A stretch of DNA of 64,000 nt from Alphaproteobacteria bacterium (lineage in GTDB: Bacteria > Pseudomonadota > Alphaproteobacteria > UBA2966), in contig OZ219858.1 of assembly GCA_964291395.2 (NCBI GenBank), positions 96,001-160,000 of the forward strand, read 5' to 3'. Below are positions 361-4,809 of this stretch, piece after piece. Made by a program: the position numbers and the translations under genes. The notes beneath the pieces are model-generated. The model was not told the DNA's origin. It made no database searches and worked only from the letters and a program-made list of their open reading frames with translations. How positions within the stretch are numbered: the stretch's first letter is position 1; each line of letters begins with the position of its first letter.

Positions 361-1344
361 TTATCGTTTGATTCTTCGCATCTCCTCGACGAGATGAGGC
401 AGAATTTCTCGGCAATCCCCGACGACACCGAAGCGCGCAGAGGCGAAAATGTCGGCGTCCTCGTCCGTGTTTATGGCGACGATGGTTTTGGCGTTGCCGC
501 AGCCCGCCATGTGCTGGCCCGCCCCCGAAATTCCCAGGGCGATATAGAGATCGGGTGCCACGGTCTTTCCGGAAAGGCCGATCTGGTAGCCCGGCGGGCA
601 CCAGCCAAGATCACAGGCCACGCGGCTGGCGCCGACCGCGCCATCCAGCACGTCGGCGAGTTCCTTCGCGTCGGCGAAGCCGTCGGGACCGCCGATGCCA
701 CGTCCGCCGGCGACGATGACATTGGCATTCTCCAGGCGCACTCCCACCGCACGTTCCGTGTCGCGTTCCACTACCCGCGTTCGAATTCTATCGGGCGTTA
801 CGACGGCGTCACGGGCGATCAGGGCGCCGCTCCGGGTATCGTCACGTGGCAACGCATCGAAGGATTTGGCCTTGATCGTGGCGATTGCGGGGGTACTCCT
901 GAAGGAGACCTGCTCCAGCGCGATGCCGCCGTAGCAAGGACGGGTGAAGCAGAGATCTTCGGCGTCGACGTCCACGCAGCCGGTCGCCACGGAGCTTCCC
1001 AGGCGGAATGCCAGGCGCGGGGCGAGATCGGCACCGACGTTCGTATGCGGCACGAGAATGGCCACCGGAGCGACTTCGCTGCTCAGAGCCTCCAGGTCGG
1101 GCAGCCAAGCGTCCGCCTGGTAGGGCTCGAACAGCTCGTCGTCGATGGTGTGAACCTCGTCGGCACCTCCCGCAATGAGGTTCCTGCCGACAGCCTCGCC
1201 GACACCGGCACCGAGACACGCGGCGATGACTTTGCCGCCCTTGGCTCCTGCGATAACGCTGGCCAGGGCGATCAGCTCCAGCGTCAATTGGGTCGGCGTG
1301 CCTTCTTCGAGCTCCACGACCGCCAGAACATTACCCGTCCCCAT
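361..1344 (-). CDS. etfA: Electron transfer flavoprotein alpha subunit (EtfA/FixB family)
   Basis: FAD-domain motifs VIVAGGRG, GAVGASR, QIGLSGKTVAPDLYIALGISGAGQHMAG, IVAINTD; adjacent to the beta subunit. Confidence 0.95.
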   Translation of the reverse strand: MGTGNVLAVVELEEGTPTQLTLELIALASVIAGAKGGKVIAACLGAGVGEAVGRNLIAGGADEVHTIDDELFEPYQADAWLPDLEALSSEVAPVAILVPHTNVGADLAPRLAFRLGSSVATGCVDVDAEDLCFTRPCYGGIALEQVSFRSTPAIATIKAKSFDALPRDDTRSGALIARDAVVTPDRIRTRVVERDTERAVGVRLENANVIVAGGRGIGGPDGFADAKELADVLDGAVGASRVACDLGWCPPGYQIGLSGKTVAPDLYIALGISGAGQHMAGCGNAKTIVAINTDEDADIFASARFGVVGDCREILPHLVEEMRRIKR

Positions 1345-1356
1345 GACTCCTCGCCC

Positions 1357-2169
1357 TCACACTATTTTCTCTTCGACGAGCCGCCGGGCGAGCGCGCTGG
1401 CGACCGCCTGCGCTCCGTCGCCTTCGATGAACTCGCACCGAGCGTCGGAGACAGGCACGTAAAGCCGCTCCAGGGTCCGGCGCGCGGCCGCCGCGCCTAC
1501 GTCCTGGGCGTCCACGCCGATATCGGCTGGTGCCCAGGCCTCGACCGGCTTTTTTGCCGCACGCATGGTTTCACGCAGACTCGCGTTACGGACGTTGCCC
1601 ATCTCGTGCGAAACGGTAACCAGGGCGGGGAGCGGCGCTTCGACGGTCTCGGAGCCGTCCCCCAGAACCCGAACCACCCGGACCGCGCCGTCAACGACGT
1701 CGATCTTCCGGGCGAATGTGATCGCGGGGACACCGAGCAACTCGGCCAAGCCGGGCCCCACCATGCCGGCATCGAAATCGGCGGCCTGCCGTCCGGCGAG
1801 CACGAGATCGACGGCCCCGAGCTTCGCAATCGCCTTGGACAGGGCATAGGCGGTCGCATACCCGTCCGAGTCGGCGAAGGCGGGATCACTCATCATCACG
1901 GCGTCGTCCACGCCGAGCGCCAGCACGTGCTTGAGGATCTTCCGCGCGCTCTCGTCGCCGATCGTCAGCGCCGTGACTCGGACTTCAGCCTCTTCTCCCA
2001 TCGCATCTCGGACGCGCAACGCCGCTTCGACCGCCTGTTCGTCGAACGGACTGATGACCGGCGACATGCCCGGAACCACGATGACCTGCTTGGCGTCCTC
2101 GTCGACGCGAAACAGGCTCGGCGCGATTTCCGGGTCGGGAATTTGCTTGATGCAGACCGCGATATGCAC
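1357..2169 (-). CDS. etfB: Electron transfer flavoprotein beta subunit (EtfB/FixA family)
   Basis: N-terminal IAVCIKQIPD, SPFDEQAVEAAL, GRQAADFDAGMVGP, PALVTV; 12 nt from etfA. Confidence 0.95.
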   Translation of the reverse strand: MHIAVCIKQIPDPEIAPSLFRVDEDAKQVIVVPGMSPVISPFDEQAVEAALRVRDAMGEEAEVRVTALTIGDESARKILKHVLALGVDDAVMMSDPAFADSDGYATAYALSKAIAKLGAVDLVLAGRQAADFDAGMVGPGLAELLGVPAITFARKIDVVDGAVRVVRVLGDGSETVEAPLPALVTVSHEMGNVRNASLRETMRAAKKPVEAWAPADIGVDAQDVGAAAARRTLERLYVPVSDARCEFIEGDGAQAVASALARRLVEEKIV

Positions 2170-2187
2170 GGACCCGTCCCTTTCGTC

Positions 2188-3447
2188 TTACTCGATCTCG
2201 ATATCCACGGGGACGATCCCGTCGAAGTGCTTACGCTGGAAATTCCATTCGGTCACCGGCTGCCTGCGGCCCTTCTCATCGGTACCACGGGACATCAACG
2301 TATGATACCCCGGCTGGGCGTCCCACAGATAAGACCAGCGGCGCCACAAGTAGCGGTCGGCGTGCTCTTCGATGTGGGCGTCGTTCCACGTCTCGCCGTT
2401 GTCGGTAGAAACCTCGACCCGGATCATGGCGCCCTCCCCGCTCCAAGCGAGGCCCCGAATCGCGTACGTGTCGGCCGGCAACGGCGACTCCTCCTCGAGT
2501 GGCTCGGTGATCACCGTTTTCACGCCGAGGGCGGTCATCATCTCCTTGTCGGGATCGTCGGGCCCCTTGCCCGATACGAAGTAGTGGGTCTGGTGGTAAC
2601 AGTCCGGCATACGGTCCATCACCTCGATCTTGTGGATCCACTTGACCCACCAATTTCCCGCCCAGCCCGGGACCACCATGCGGACGGGCGCACCATGCAC
2701 GTGGGTCAGGTATTCGCCGTTATGGGCCCAGGCGAGAATGGTCTCGGAATCCATCGCCTTTTCGATGGGCAGTCCCTTGTCGTAGTTGATGACGCCGGGA
2801 TCATGGACCTCAAAGTCCGTGCGCCCCACCGAGCGGTACTGGATGGTGGAATCCGGGCGGCCACGATCGAACCCTTCGACGCGAATGGCGACGGCGGAAT
2901 CCTTGATCCCCACACGCTCCAGCACCTCCCTGAGACGGGTACCGGTCCACTCACCTCCCGACACGATGCAGGTGGCAGGGATCAACGAACTCAGCTCCTC
3001 CAGGTCCAACGCTCCGCTCTCCGCCATGCCGTGCCAGTCAATGCCCTCCACCTCCTCGCGCACGGTACGCGAAGGCTTGGGCATGTTGCCGCCCTTGGCA
3101 CGAGACTCCAGATAATCCCAGAATTCCGTGTCATCGCCCGCACACTCCGTCACCGCGCGAACGGTATGGCCGGGCAGCTTTCGCAGGTCCCCAAGCGTGT
3201 AGGTCATGGGGTTCTCGACCTCGCCGAAGATCTCGAAGGAATAGTCGTCCGGATGAACCGGCTCCGGCATTTGTAGCTGAGCAACGATGTAGTAGGCATC
3301 CGTCGGCGTGATGAGACCTTCCAGCTCGAGAAACGGGGTGCGCGCGTGGATCGTGCGGCCTTCTTGGTCCTTGCTTGGCGACAGCCGGTAGCGCTTGCGG
3401 TCCGGCCAGCCCATCACCCAATCACCCTCGATCTCCTTCCGCGGCAT
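2188..3447 (-). CDS. Sulfite oxidase-family molybdopterin oxidoreductase (Moco domain plus dimerisation domain), no signal peptide or heme domain
   Basis: ITP, Mo-ligand ECAG, EWTG, NGEYL..HGAPVRMVVPGWAG..VKW, GLAWSG..IRVEVSTDNGETW, RGTDEKG..QP; SD GAGGT upstream. Confidence 0.9.
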   Translation of the reverse strand: MPRKEIEGDWVMGWPDRKRYRLSPSKDQEGRTIHARTPFLELEGLITPTDAYYIVAQLQMPEPVHPDDYSFEIFGEVENPMTYTLGDLRKLPGHTVRAVTECAGDDTEFWDYLESRAKGGNMPKPSRTVREEVEGIDWHGMAESGALDLEELSSLIPATCIVSGGEWTGTRLREVLERVGIKDSAVAIRVEGFDRGRPDSTIQYRSVGRTDFEVHDPGVINYDKGLPIEKAMDSETILAWAHNGEYLTHVHGAPVRMVVPGWAGNWWVKWIHKIEVMDRMPDCYHQTHYFVSGKGPDDPDKEMMTALGVKTVITEPLEEESPLPADTYAIRGLAWSGEGAMIRVEVSTDNGETWNDAHIEEHADRYLWRRWSYLWDAQPGYHTLMSRGTDEKGRRQPVTEWNFQRKHFDGIVPVDIEIE

Positions 3448-3571
3448 GCTTACCTCTTCTCATTTGTGGGAGCCGGTGCCCCGAAGGGCGCCAGCGCATT
3501 CGCCGCAGAATAGCAGGCGGCATGTGCGATGGGGAGGCGGGGAGAAGGCCGAAGACACCAAGCAGAGGAAA

Positions 3572-4156
3572 TCAGAACGACGAGCGGGGTTCCTTCAGAA
3601 ATGCCAATTCGTTTGCGGTCGACTGGCGGCCCAACGTCTCGTTGCGATGGGGGAAACGCCCGAACCGCTCGATGATCTCGCAGTGCCGATGCACCGAGAA
3701 ATGCGCCCTCTCCCGGAAATCTTCGTCGAAATCCGGCAGTATCTGCGAGTAGAGCGCGACGCAGTGCCGCTGATCGGCCAGATTCTCACTGTGCTCGAAA
3801 GGTAGATAGACGAACAGGCGCTGTACGGTCATCAACTGGCGATCGACTCCGCGATCCACTGCCCGCCGCGCGATCGAGCGTGCCTTGGCGTCCGCAGAGT
3901 AAGCCTTGGGGAGCCCTCGAAAGATGTTTCGGGGAAACTGATCGAGCGTGACGATCAGAGCCAGGGTGCCTTCCACCGTTTCCTGCCACGAATCGTAGCT
4001 ACCCGCCGACGCCTTCGCGACGACCCGTCCGAAGCGGTCGCGGATCTCCGCATCGAAGGCGGCATCCTTTTCGAACCAGGCCGCCCGGTGTGAGCCAAAC
4101 TCCGTGCCGGCGGGGTCACCGAACCAAAACTTCAACACGTCCGGGTACTCGGTCAT
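3572..4156 (-). CDS. DUF924 family protein (copy 2)
   Basis: VLKFWF, WFEKDAAFDAEIR, LDQFPRNIFRG, YLPFEHSE, IIERFGRFPHRN; start moved to ATG 4156, 4 nt after the stop of copy 1. Confidence 0.9.
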   Translation of the reverse strand: MTEYPDVLKFWFGDPAGTEFGSHRAAWFEKDAAFDAEIRDRFGRVVAKASAGSYDSWQETVEGTLALIVTLDQFPRNIFRGLPKAYSADAKARSIARRAVDRGVDRQLMTVQRLFVYLPFEHSENLADQRHCVALYSQILPDFDEDFRERAHFSVHRHCEIIERFGRFPHRNETLGRQSTANELAFLKEPRSSF

Positions 4157-4160
4157 AGCC

Positions 4161-4748
4161 TCAACCAAAACTGGATCGTGGTTCCTCAAGAAATGCCGCC
4201 TCCGCAGCGCTGGTCGCCCGCCCCAGCGTCTCGTTGCGGTGGGGAAATCGCCCGAATCGCTCGATGATCTCGCAATGGCGATGAATCGCGAAATGGAAGC
4301 GTTCGTAAAGAGCGCCGTCGAAGTCCCCAAGAATGGTCATCAGGTGCGCAACTCCCCGACGCTGATCGGCGAGGTTCTCGCTGTGCTGGAACGGCAGATA
4401 GAGAAACAGCTTCCGCATGGTCGAGAATCGCCGGTCGAAACCGCGATCCAAGGCCTGGCGCGCGACGGAGCGCGCCCTGGCGTCCGTCGCGAAGGCCGTC
4501 GGATGCCTGCGAAAAATGTTCCGAGGAAACTGGTCGAGGACGATGGTCAGCGCGAGCGCGCCGTCCGGTGTCTCCTGCCAAGCATCGCAATCGCCCGCCG
4601 ACGCCTTCGCGACGACACCTGCGAAGCGCGAACGCACCTCTGAATCGAACGCGTCGTCCTTCCCGAACCAAGCGTCCCGGAATTCGTTGAAATCCTCGTC
4701 GCCGGGATCGCCGAACCAGAACGCCAAAACCTCCGAATACCCCGTCAT
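4161..4748 (-). CDS. DUF924 family protein (copy 1)
   Basis: VLAFWF, LDQFPRNIFR, YLPFQHSE, IIERFGRFPHRN; start moved to ATG 4748 by alignment with copy 2. Confidence 0.9.
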   Translation of the reverse strand: MTGYSEVLAFWFGDPGDEDFNEFRDAWFGKDDAFDSEVRSRFAGVVAKASAGDCDAWQETPDGALALTIVLDQFPRNIFRRHPTAFATDARARSVARQALDRGFDRRFSTMRKLFLYLPFQHSENLADQRRGVAHLMTILGDFDGALYERFHFAIHRHCEIIERFGRFPHRNETLGRATSAAEAAFLEEPRSSFG

Positions 4749-4809
4749 GGGCGGCACCCCACGGACGCGCGGCCTATTGACGCACGGCCGCGCCGAATCC
4801 GACACACGA

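Follow-up and report, generated by a model that had tools for sequence, protein, structure and literature searches.

A predicted cytoplasmic molybdoenzyme of the sulfite oxidase fold and the electron transfer flavoprotein encoded beside it in Alphaproteobacteria and other bacteria

The stretch analysed here, called the window below, comprises 64,000 nucleotides of contig OZ219858.1 (positions 96,001 to 160,000) from an alphaproteobacterium of the UBA2966 lineage (assembly GCA_964291395.2). Near its left end three genes lie on the minus strand, encoding a molybdenum (Mo) enzyme related to sulfite oxidase (SO) (2188-3447; 419 aa, ATG start) followed by the two subunits of an electron transfer flavoprotein (ETF), etfB (1357-2169; 270 aa, GTG start) and etfA (361-1344; 327 aa, ATG start). 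As a sequence-only reading of the window had reported, and as the open reading frame (ORF) listing agrees, the genes are co-oriented and separated by gaps of 18 nt (2170-2187, minus strand), without a terminator, and 12 nt (1345-1356, minus strand), the latter carrying GAGGAG. Purine-rich, Shine-Dalgarno-like runs were read ahead of all three start codons, the one before the ATG of the Mo gene being GAAGAGG within the 124-nt region 5' of that gene (3448-3571, minus strand). Promoter and terminator scans returned nothing that fits the three-gene unit and no sigma-70-like consensus site in 3448-3571, and the hairpin found at 278-293 by the terminator scan lies on the strand opposite to the unit. 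The Mo gene, etfB and etfA form one operon-like unit, and the comparisons described below argue strongly for a functional coupling of the predicted Mo enzyme and ETF.

The adjacency of etfAB to homologues of the Mo gene was surveyed in the best 80 of 486 related stretches, of which 77 were informative and three were not, the contig ending less than 50 nt from the Mo gene. EtfB and EtfA are encoded directly 3' of the Mo gene in 60 of the 80 loci, at a spacing of 6 to 207 nt (median 21). Five more loci carry a displaced ETF pair, within about 3 kb or divergent: in three it lies further downstream, after a second Mo copy (L069, L077) or after two genes (L076), and in two it lies divergently upstream (L039, L067). 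Found in 60 of the 77 informative loci, the Mo-EtfB-EtfA arrangement is far beyond chance. Linked loci carry the labels of Alphaproteobacteria (several orders), SAR116, Betaproteobacteria/Burkholderiales, Gammaproteobacteria (Njordibacter, Pseudomonadales), Binatia and others, and the adjacency, direct in 60 loci and close by in five, is therefore kept across several classes. The gene order persists down to 57% identity to the window for the Mo protein and about 41-43% for the ETF subunits, in at least five unrelated neighbourhoods, and over 52 trios the pairwise identities of the Mo protein correlate with those of EtfB (r=0.82) and EtfA (r=0.85). On a quick IQ-TREE phylogeny of the Mo proteins, the ETF-linked state occupies 66 of 81 labelled rows and most clades, the unlinked rows falling into about six small clades that include three of the window genome's four paralogues. 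The unit has also travelled: the Mo, EtfB and EtfA proteins of a SAR116/Puniceispirillum locus (L028) are 96, 92 and 93% identical to those of a complete Njordibacter genome (L036), and the unit TetR / MaoC-Mo-EtfB-EtfA-MFS recurs in the L021-L037 records with 92-96% protein identity between SAR116/Puniceispirillum and Njordibacter, which indicates recent transfer between classes (Alpha- and Gammaproteobacteria).

Co-occurrence points the same way. Among 31 relatives, the Mo family and this EtfB subtype were found in the identical seven genomes and neither in the other 24 (E<=1e-60). Each of the seven holders has one such EtfB, beside one Mo gene, despite carrying two to four Mo paralogues, which fits a single ETF serving several paralogues. 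Three Chloroflexota (SAR202/Dehalococcoidia) genomes in which no ETF pair adjoins the Mo gene encode this ETF subtype elsewhere; two of the EtfB proteins are full-length and match at 325 and 288 bits, a contig end truncates the third, and the neighbours of these ETFs gave no clue to a partner. Synteny and co-occurrence together support the proposal of the sequence-only reading that a molybdenum cofactor enzyme is wired to an ETF, with physical electron transfer between the two as the step we infer. Co-folding of EtfA (residues 6-323), EtfB (residues 1-263) and the full Mo enzyme gave a score of 0.01, which speaks neither for nor against binding. A full-text search combining terms for SO or sulfite dehydrogenase with ETF returned no description of the pairing, the 2017 ETF classification lying outside its coverage. 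In the excerpts of PMC4760952, PMC3578206 and PMC5373536 that the search returned, SO-type enzymes and ETF are mentioned separately only; the excerpt of PMC5373536 also cites a 'putative molybdopterin oxidoreductase' proposed for cytoplasmic sulfite detoxification in Variovorax paradoxus B4.

Both subunits of the ETF match PF01012 (EtfB, E 3.4e-35; EtfA, E 5.5e-33), EtfA also matches the FAD-binding PF00766 (ETF_alpha, E 2.8e-31), and Pfam detected no N-terminal ferredoxin domain in EtfA. Among solved structures, EtfB is nearest to CarD (E 5e-40) and to the A. fermentans Etf (1.6e-38), as compared with 1e-25 for the Paracoccus and 2e-22 for the human protein, so that bifurcating-type entries are favoured by at least 13 orders of magnitude. 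EtfA is nearest to the Etf of G. metallireducens and C. difficile, CarE and the T. maritima protein (E 1e-50 to 1e-53), as compared with 1e-41 for Paracoccus and 1e-37 for human ETF. An excerpt of PMC9232219 gives as hallmarks of bifurcating ETFs the EtfB b-FAD motif DGDTAQVGP, the NADH motif RxFxG and the anchor SPT. The b-FAD site of the window EtfB, G-R-Q-A-A-D-F-D-A-G-M-V-G-P (residues 126-139; 1753-1794, minus strand), reads DFDAGMVGP and keeps five of the nine positions, with T replaced by A, A by G and Q by M; in a 36-row family alignment (A3) most positions of residues 126-139 are invariant or near-invariant, and the T-to-A and A-to-G changes are present in at least 90% of the rows. 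The site of the NADH motif reads PAFAD in the window EtfB and DPAF in the family consensus, as against RAFGG in CarD, and SPT is absent from both the window EtfB and the family consensus. A bifurcating identity was rejected on these grounds (RxFxG and SPT absent, b-FAD motif 5/9). By its sequence, the ETF descends from the bifurcating-type lineage and has lost the NADH motif, and it therefore most likely acts as a simple carrier.

It is also distinct from the other ETF of the same genome. The window EtfB lacks a motif of the canonical GKQAIDDD[CS]NQTGQ type, which the genome's other EtfB has (GKQAIDDDSNQTGQ), and against a profile of Mo-linked EtfB proteins the window EtfB scores 424 bits, compared with 139 for this second, housekeeping EtfB and 139-153 for canonical EtfB proteins. 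The housekeeping pair adjoins a 3-hydroxyacyl-CoA dehydrogenase gene and lies near an acyl-CoA dehydrogenase gene; since it exists, the window ETF is an additional one. A single ETF:quinone oxidoreductase (ETF-QO) is encoded in the genome.

The 419-aa protein matches PF00174 (Oxidored_molyb, E 1.9e-40) and PF03404 (Mo-co_dimer, E 1.2e-13), both above their gathering scores, and Pfam found no heme, cytochrome or iron-sulfur (Fe-S) domain in any of the three proteins. All specific NCBIfam equivalogs score below their cut-offs: 203 bits of 420 for SoxC, 179 of 600 for SorA, 140 of 570 for SorT and 44 of 207 for MsrP. An AlphaFold2 model built on a 127-row alignment reached a predicted local distance difference test score (pLDDT) of 92.8 and a predicted template modelling (TM) score of 0.91; an 18-row model (pLDDT 64.7) was discarded. 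Its top Foldseek matches are SorA, SoxC, chicken and plant SO, SorT, a Thermus enzyme and yeast nitrate reductase (E 1e-26 to 1e-34, TM 0.64-0.83). Sulfite-oxidising enzymes and nitrate reductase align over at least 400 columns, whereas YedY chains (1xdy, 1xdq) align over 222-251 columns with a TM of 0.32-0.34 normalised to the query. No export signal was seen in 36 of 36 family members, whose most hydrophobic 12-residue window within the first 70 residues scores 0.49-1.20 on the Kyte-Doolittle scale, and none of the 36 has a twin-arginine [ST]RRxF motif; in the same test the genome's SorA-like paralogue shows DRRGFL followed by a hydrophobic stretch scoring 1.99. Export by the twin-arginine translocation (Tat) pathway was accordingly rejected for the Mo enzyme. 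The hydrophobicity and motif check and Pfam agree with the sequence-only reading, which had noted neither a Tat/Sec signal nor a heme domain, and the Mo enzyme is thus predicted to be a cytoplasmic, heme-less member of the SO fold. Elsewhere in the window genome (C1:2591594-2592889) lies a canonical-looking SorA/SoxC-type Mo enzyme gene with a Tat-like signal, without an adjoining cytochrome c gene and followed by a Phd/PIN toxin-antitoxin pair.

The family to which it belongs is large yet tight, rare and patchy. At E<=1e-10 it comprises 629 proteins, the best 120 of which are 57-90% identical to the window protein, and clustering at 50% identity leaves it as essentially a single cluster, beyond which the closest full-length proteins are P0121 (43%) and P0123 (40%). 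It occurs in 486 stretches of species-representative genomes and in none of 150 other families of the same class (an even sample). Public names are generic, either 'molybdopterin-dependent oxidoreductase' or, in JGI data, 'DMSO/TMAO reductase YedYZ ... catalytic subunit'; the protein atlas offers only generic SO-family clusters, and the named cluster members examined come from metagenome-assembled genomes (MAGs) or metagenomes, bar one Glaciimonas immobilis protein. No fused forms of at least 735 aa were found in the family, a search that is weak evidence. In the sister clade, P0123 (714 aa) is a fusion in which an SO-fold Mo domain with the arginine-less loop ECSGNGQDD is joined to a Mer-type, F420-dependent luciferase-like oxidoreductase domain, which shows that the Mo-ETF unit is not alone in having a partner of (deaza)flavin type. 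Two distant SO-family proteins are fused as well, P0181 to a type I cysteine dioxygenase, with the canonical RNH and CAGNGR kept, and P0210 to a cyclic-nucleotide-binding domain.

The predicted active site departs from that of known sulfite dehydrogenases. Residues were compared between 34 family rows and 92 other SO-family rows, and the pairwise alignment with SorA and alignment A2 agree. The predicted Mo ligand, Cys102 (codon at 3142-3144, minus strand), sits in the invariant motif E-C-A-G-[N/D]-D, pairs with the Cys of SorA NQCSGNSR and is kept in 34/34 family and 91/92 other rows. Position 55 (SorA R55) is V, I or T in 31 of the 34 family rows and N, M or H in the others, as against R in 78 of 92 other rows; position 57 (SorA H57) is an invariant Gln, as against H in 71 of 92; and position 107 (SorA R109) is T, A, G, D or S, as against R in 78 of 92. 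The arginine of RNH corresponds to SorA R55, chicken R138 and SorT R78, residues targeted according to the titles of mutant entries in the PDB, and the second, SorA R109, is presumably chicken R190. Asp is invariant at position 106, where other rows mostly have G or S; positions 265-267 read N-W-W instead of mostly M-A-S; and positions 405-406 are an invariant R-K where other bacterial members have G-Y, in a region that we take to contain chicken Arg450. SorA Y236 (chicken Y322) pairs with Y289 in the HMMER alignment, whereas in the 127-row MAFFT alignment the conserved Tyr (86/92) pairs with F290; Y289 and F290 are adjacent and both invariant in the family. Judged from these alignments, the pocket has lost both arginines of sulfite dehydrogenases and gained Asp106, Trp266, Trp267, Arg405 and Lys406. 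The identity of a canonical sulfite dehydrogenase was rejected, the scores lying under the NCBIfam cut-offs and both arginines being replaced; because both are absent, the enzyme would not be a canonical sulfite dehydrogenase, and the remodelled pocket suggests a substrate beyond those known for the SO fold.

Two further elements set the family apart. Right after the Cys loop, an insertion of about 55 residues (approximately 107-161; 2965-3129, minus strand) corresponds to a gap in canonical SO-family proteins (alignment A2) and is shorter in the sister clade of P0121 and P0123; Pfam matches the cofactor domain in two stretches. In the model it forms helices at 108-117, 138-143 and 149-155, with reduced pLDDT in blocks 131-160, and it is a candidate lid or partner-docking element. 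The N-terminal tail (residues 1-31; 3355-3447, minus strand) is conserved in alignment A4, with M1, E5, G8, G13, D16, R17, D27 and R31 invariant and W14 nearly so. Residues 1-20 have a pLDDT of 44-58 and are predicted to be disordered in the monomer, and the tail is also present in ETF-less paralogues; a role as docking or dimer element is possible.

Gene neighbourhoods of family members show two recurring themes: genes that handle acyl-CoA with no acyl-CoA dehydrogenase among them, and oxygenolytic clusters of the organosulfur type. In the largest clade, a Betaproteobacterial one (32 rows), the order is biotin carboxyl carrier protein, carboxyltransferase, Mo, EtfB, EtfA, second carboxyltransferase and biotin carboxylase, with an ADP-forming CoA ligase or a FadB-like gene next and GntR, enoyl-CoA hydratase, family III CoA-transferase and TctC genes nearby. 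Such loci (L033-L080) encode a separate 73-aa biotin carrier, distinct carboxyltransferases (~522 and ~511 aa) and a stand-alone biotin carboxylase. Near the SAR116/Njordibacter unit lie a glutathione-dependent formaldehyde dehydrogenase (above the NCBIfam cut-off) and an esterase-family gene, and three Burkholderiales loci carry LysR, an NMT1-type binding protein, DUF169, a three-subunit xanthine-dehydrogenase-family enzyme and a class III aminotransferase. The deep-branching loci L039, L067 and L076 have NtaA/DmoA-type luciferase-like monooxygenases alongside; TauD occurs in L064 and L067, MFS transporters in L039 and L067, and an ACAD-fold protein in L076. TauE lies immediately 5' in five loci and at paralogue 1 of the window genome, and NMT1 (SsuA-like) binding proteins occur near paralogue 2 and in L018. 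The three further Mo paralogues of this genome are 59-82% identical to the window protein and none has an adjoining ETF. Paralogue 1 (C1:1608264-1609517) stands in the order GST-TauE-OpuAC ABC transporter-Mo-TRAP-Rieske oxygenase, that is, with a TauE sulfite-exporter gene 5' and TRAP transporter and Rieske oxygenase genes 3'. The other unlinked paralogues lie beside SsuA-like ABC transporters or Amidohydro_2 genes: paralogue 2 (C1:976922-978223) by an NMT1 (SsuA-like) ABC transporter and paralogue 3 (C1:1572879-1574144) by Amidohydro_2 and GntR genes. Because of these neighbourhoods, our best guess for the substrate is a cytoplasmic sulfur oxyanion from organosulfur breakdown, either sulfite or an organic sulfinate; the latter would suit a pocket that has Val and Trp for arginines and some basic residues left. 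Directly 3' of Mo-EtfB-EtfA in a MAG of Pseudorhodoplanes (L009:6337-10035) come genes for a resolvase and for a Cas9-like protein with HNH, RuvC_III and Cas9 alpha-helical lobe domains.

In the window genome itself the unit looks like an insertion in a housekeeping stretch. On one flank are two DUF924 genes (Pfam) followed by ilvC, ilvH, ilvI and miaA, and on the other, left of the window, leuA, mreB, mreC, mreD and PBP2-like and rodA-like genes; apart from DUF924, these names come from translations, for the left flank without a family scan. Neither flank, including the part left of the window, holds an acyl-CoA dehydrogenase, cytochrome or fixCX gene. This agrees with the sequence-only reading, which had seen no such gene adjoining and had allowed that a partner dehydrogenase might lie just left of the window; the region was inspected and there is none there. 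The tandem DUF924 genes (E 1e-65 and 1e-61) fill positions 3572-4805 of the minus strand, with ilvC on one side and the Mo gene on the other, and their ORF calls overlap, probably because the listed TTG start of the first ORF is too far upstream. Same-genus genomes (L001-L005) have the unit at the identical location. Contamination of the window genome (G000) is reported as 9%, but other genomes of the genus carry the unit together with its flanks. Positions 361-3447 were found, at half or more of the sampled words, in 15 DNA-type runs, 12 of them labelled as sponge metagenomes and three with coded organism names, so that the organism probably lives in association with sponges. Each of the three genes is covered in part by contigs from metatranscriptomes, namely three sponge libraries and one coral library. 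One contig (X16 record 3; 616 nt, 1 difference) covers 2948-3563, from the interior of the Mo gene across its start, and another (X19 record 19; 250 nt, 7 differences) covers 2134-2383 and thus spans the spacer between the Mo gene and etfB, extending 36 and 196 nt to its two sides. These contigs would fit expression and co-transcription; gaps in their coverage are uninformative, and their depth played no part in the reading.

Cumulatively, our findings suggest a Mo oxotransferase that passes electrons to its own ETF and from there to quinone, a reading to which we assign a probability of about 0.6. The Mo centre, ligated by Cys102, would oxidise a small substrate (X + H2O -> XO + 2H+ + 2e-) and would then give up its two electrons one at a time to the FAD carried on the mobile domain of EtfAB, which would take the place of the c-type cytochrome used by periplasmic SorA, SorT and SoxC. 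Reduced ETF would in turn be re-oxidised by the genome's single ETF-QO, the electrons entering the quinone pool. In this scheme the docking of the two proteins and the direction of electron flow are what we infer. More specifically, and only tentatively, as this narrower version seems to us somewhat less probable than its negation, the unit may be a new redox module in which an SO-fold enzyme and a dedicated non-bifurcating ETF make up a cytoplasmic 'S-oxyanion:ETF oxidoreductase' for sulfinates or sulfite, with paralogues sharing one ETF. If so, it would be the first SO-fold molybdoenzyme with a flavoprotein, and not heme or O2, as physiological partner; its substrates would come from organosulfonate, sulfone or thiol breakdown, with electrons flowing via ETF-QO to quinone, and the family would have radiated into substrate-specific paralogues, four of them in the sponge-associated window genome.

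Several observations weigh against a Mo enzyme that oxidises a sulfur compound and feeds its own ETF. Twelve of the 77 informative loci have no ETF within the 466-7000 nt available downstream, and the surveyed loci are not independent, many being close kin, so that kinship inflates the counts. The alphaproteobacterial genome of one ETF-less locus (G005, locus L052) showed only a canonical-type EtfB (153 bits), and the Mo family can therefore apparently work without this ETF subtype. Loss of the SorA R55 and R109 equivalents and the possible Tyr-to-Phe change (F290) disfavour sulfite as substrate. Neither the Betaproteobacterial clade, with its acyl-CoA carboxylase, CoA-ligase and hydratase genes, nor the SAR116-type unit with its MaoC dehydratase has an obvious link to sulfur. 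The nearest solved relatives of the ETF (CarCDE, Bcd) serve reductases, which fits a flow towards the Mo enzyme, as does the fusion to an F420-dependent domain in P0123. Finally, the RNA-library contigs prove neither transcription nor a single transcript.

One alternative keeps the physical pairing and reverses the direction of flow. Were the ETF to reduce the Mo enzyme, the latter would be a cytoplasmic reductase of an S-oxide, an N-oxide or a similar oxidised compound, comparable in function to MsrP/YedY, to mARC or to the Mo domain of assimilatory nitrate reductase, and the ETF would stand in for the heme/flavin chain. The kinship of the ETF to CarDE and to the A. fermentans and C. difficile proteins, all of which feed reductases, would suit such an enzyme, as would the acryloyl-CoA reductase ETF being the best NCBIfam match for EtfA and the second-best for EtfB, the arginine-less pocket, the JGI naming as YedYZ catalytic subunit, the joining of F420-dependent oxidoreductase and Mo domains in P0123, and the flavin-containing monooxygenase (FMO)-like genes, whose products make S- or N-oxides, near some paralogues. 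However, the EtfB family lacks RxFxG, so that the unit encodes no electron source for the ETF, and no dehydrogenase consistently adjoins it; moreover, similarity to MsrP is weak (44 bits against 207), the dimerisation domain is present, and YedY aligns over 222-251 columns as against at least 400 for sulfite oxidisers and nitrate reductase. We therefore regard reduction of the Mo enzyme as unlikely. A further alternative is a new bifurcating complex, in which NADH would react at a second FAD in EtfB and one electron each would go to the high-potential substrate of the Mo enzyme and to ferredoxin or flavodoxin. The nearest solved relatives are indeed bifurcating ETFs, D131, D133, V137 and G138 of the b-FAD motif are kept, and EtfA Arg135 is invariant and possibly equivalent to LctC R205, as estimated from the alignment offset only. 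Such a complex is nevertheless highly improbable, as neither the window EtfB nor the family consensus has RxFxG or SPT, the b-FAD motif has other residues at T125 and Q127, EtfA is devoid of a ferredoxin domain, and the unit contains no ferredoxin, flavodoxin or FixCX gene.

Another alternative keeps the direction and the ETF acceptor and narrows the substrate: an ordinary, cytoplasmic sulfite dehydrogenase in which Arg405, Lys406 and Arg97 compensate for the lost arginines, a special case of oxidation coupled to the ETF. The best sequence and fold matches (SorA, SoxC, SorT), the TauE, TauD and desulfonating-type monooxygenase genes near family members and the invariant basic pair R405 and K406, which the family has gained at positions occupied by G and Y in other bacterial members, would all fit. 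Yet the scores lie far under the equivalog cut-offs (203/420, 179/600, 140/570), position 55 is V/I/T in 31/34 rows and position 107 T/A/G/D/S where 78/92 other rows have R, and an invariant Asp106 stands beside the Cys loop, which leaves this version, in our view, conceivable but doubtful. At the other extreme, there may be no coupling at all, the ETF serving other dehydrogenases and lying beside the Mo gene only because a mobile island carried both. In favour, the Mo family is rare, with a patchy distribution (0/150 other families of the class), and has clearly moved between classes, the window unit is wedged among housekeeping genes, and some members have no adjoining ETF. Mere hitch-hiking would be hard to reconcile with a gene order that persists down to 57% (Mo) and ~41-43% (ETF) identity and in at least five different neighbourhoods, with an exact co-occurrence (7/7 versus 0/24) and with a separate housekeeping ETF that covers the acyl-CoA dehydrogenase context; we consider it very unlikely.

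Taking electron transfer from the Mo enzyme to its own ETF as the preferred reading, the unit can be set against known systems. SO-fold enzymes are the textbook case of Mo-to-heme (or Mo-to-O2) transfer, and ETFs are textbook partners of flavin dehydrogenases; with a conserved Mo-ETF coupling, each family would gain a type of partner that is new to it. Such a coupling would, in addition, let electrons from the cytoplasmic oxidation of a sulfur compound, or of another oxo-transfer substrate, enter respiration with neither a cytochrome nor a membrane complex of the SoeABC type involved. The Mo family, albeit rare, occurs widely among uncultured bacteria from marine, groundwater and sponge sources, SAR116 and SAR202 records among them, and its generic annotation therefore renders any role in organosulfur or other element cycling invisible when metagenomes are interpreted.

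With SorAB, SorT-SorU and SoxCD the Mo enzyme shares the two-domain SO fold, the Cys-ligated Mo and the ECAGN loop, and the unit would share with them the principle of a soluble one-electron carrier that re-oxidises the Mo centre. Those systems are periplasmic, with Tat signals, c-type cytochromes and pocket arginines, whereas the present unit has no signal, an ETF instead of a cytochrome, the ~55-residue insertion and the N-terminal tail. Plant sulfite oxidase (1ogp; TM 0.70/0.75) resembles the Mo enzyme in consisting of the Mo and dimerisation domains only and in being non-periplasmic. It is heme-less, passes electrons to O2 and keeps the sulfite-binding arginines, whereas here the arginines are absent and a dedicated ETF is encoded alongside. 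The claim in the sequence-only reading that characterised SO-family enzymes exchange electrons with hemes hence fails for the plant enzyme. In eukaryotic assimilatory nitrate reductase (2bih/2bii), as proposed for the unit, an SO-fold Mo domain in the cytoplasm exchanges electrons with a chain that contains flavin. That enzyme acts as a reductase and carries cytochrome b5 and FAD/NAD(P)H domains on the same polypeptide, whereas the unit has a separate heterodimeric ETF, no heme and no NADH motif. MsrPQ (YedYZ), from which the public names are borrowed, has an SO-family Mo domain and an arginine-poor pocket too; MsrP is periplasmic and its partner is the membrane heme protein MsrQ, and the Mo enzyme differs from it in both the extent of structural alignment with YedY and the MsrP score given above.

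On the flavoprotein side, the classical ETFs of acyl-CoA dehydrogenases and of the Methylophilus trimethylamine dehydrogenase, whether dedicated or shared, carry single electrons from a soluble dehydrogenase to ETF-QO, which the window genome also encodes. The full-text search found no pterin-molybdenum centre as direct ETF partner, and, to our knowledge, all known partners donate from a flavin or an Fe-S cluster. Bifurcating EtfAB proteins (Bcd-EtfAB, CarCDE, Ldh-EtfAB, FixABCX) are the closest solved relatives of both window subunits, which differ from them in that the hallmark motifs are not kept and the predicted partner is not a flavoenzyme. The system is therefore best filed under both headings, as an SO-fold enzyme with a remodelled pocket and a predicted flavoprotein partner, and as an ETF with a predicted non-flavin partner.

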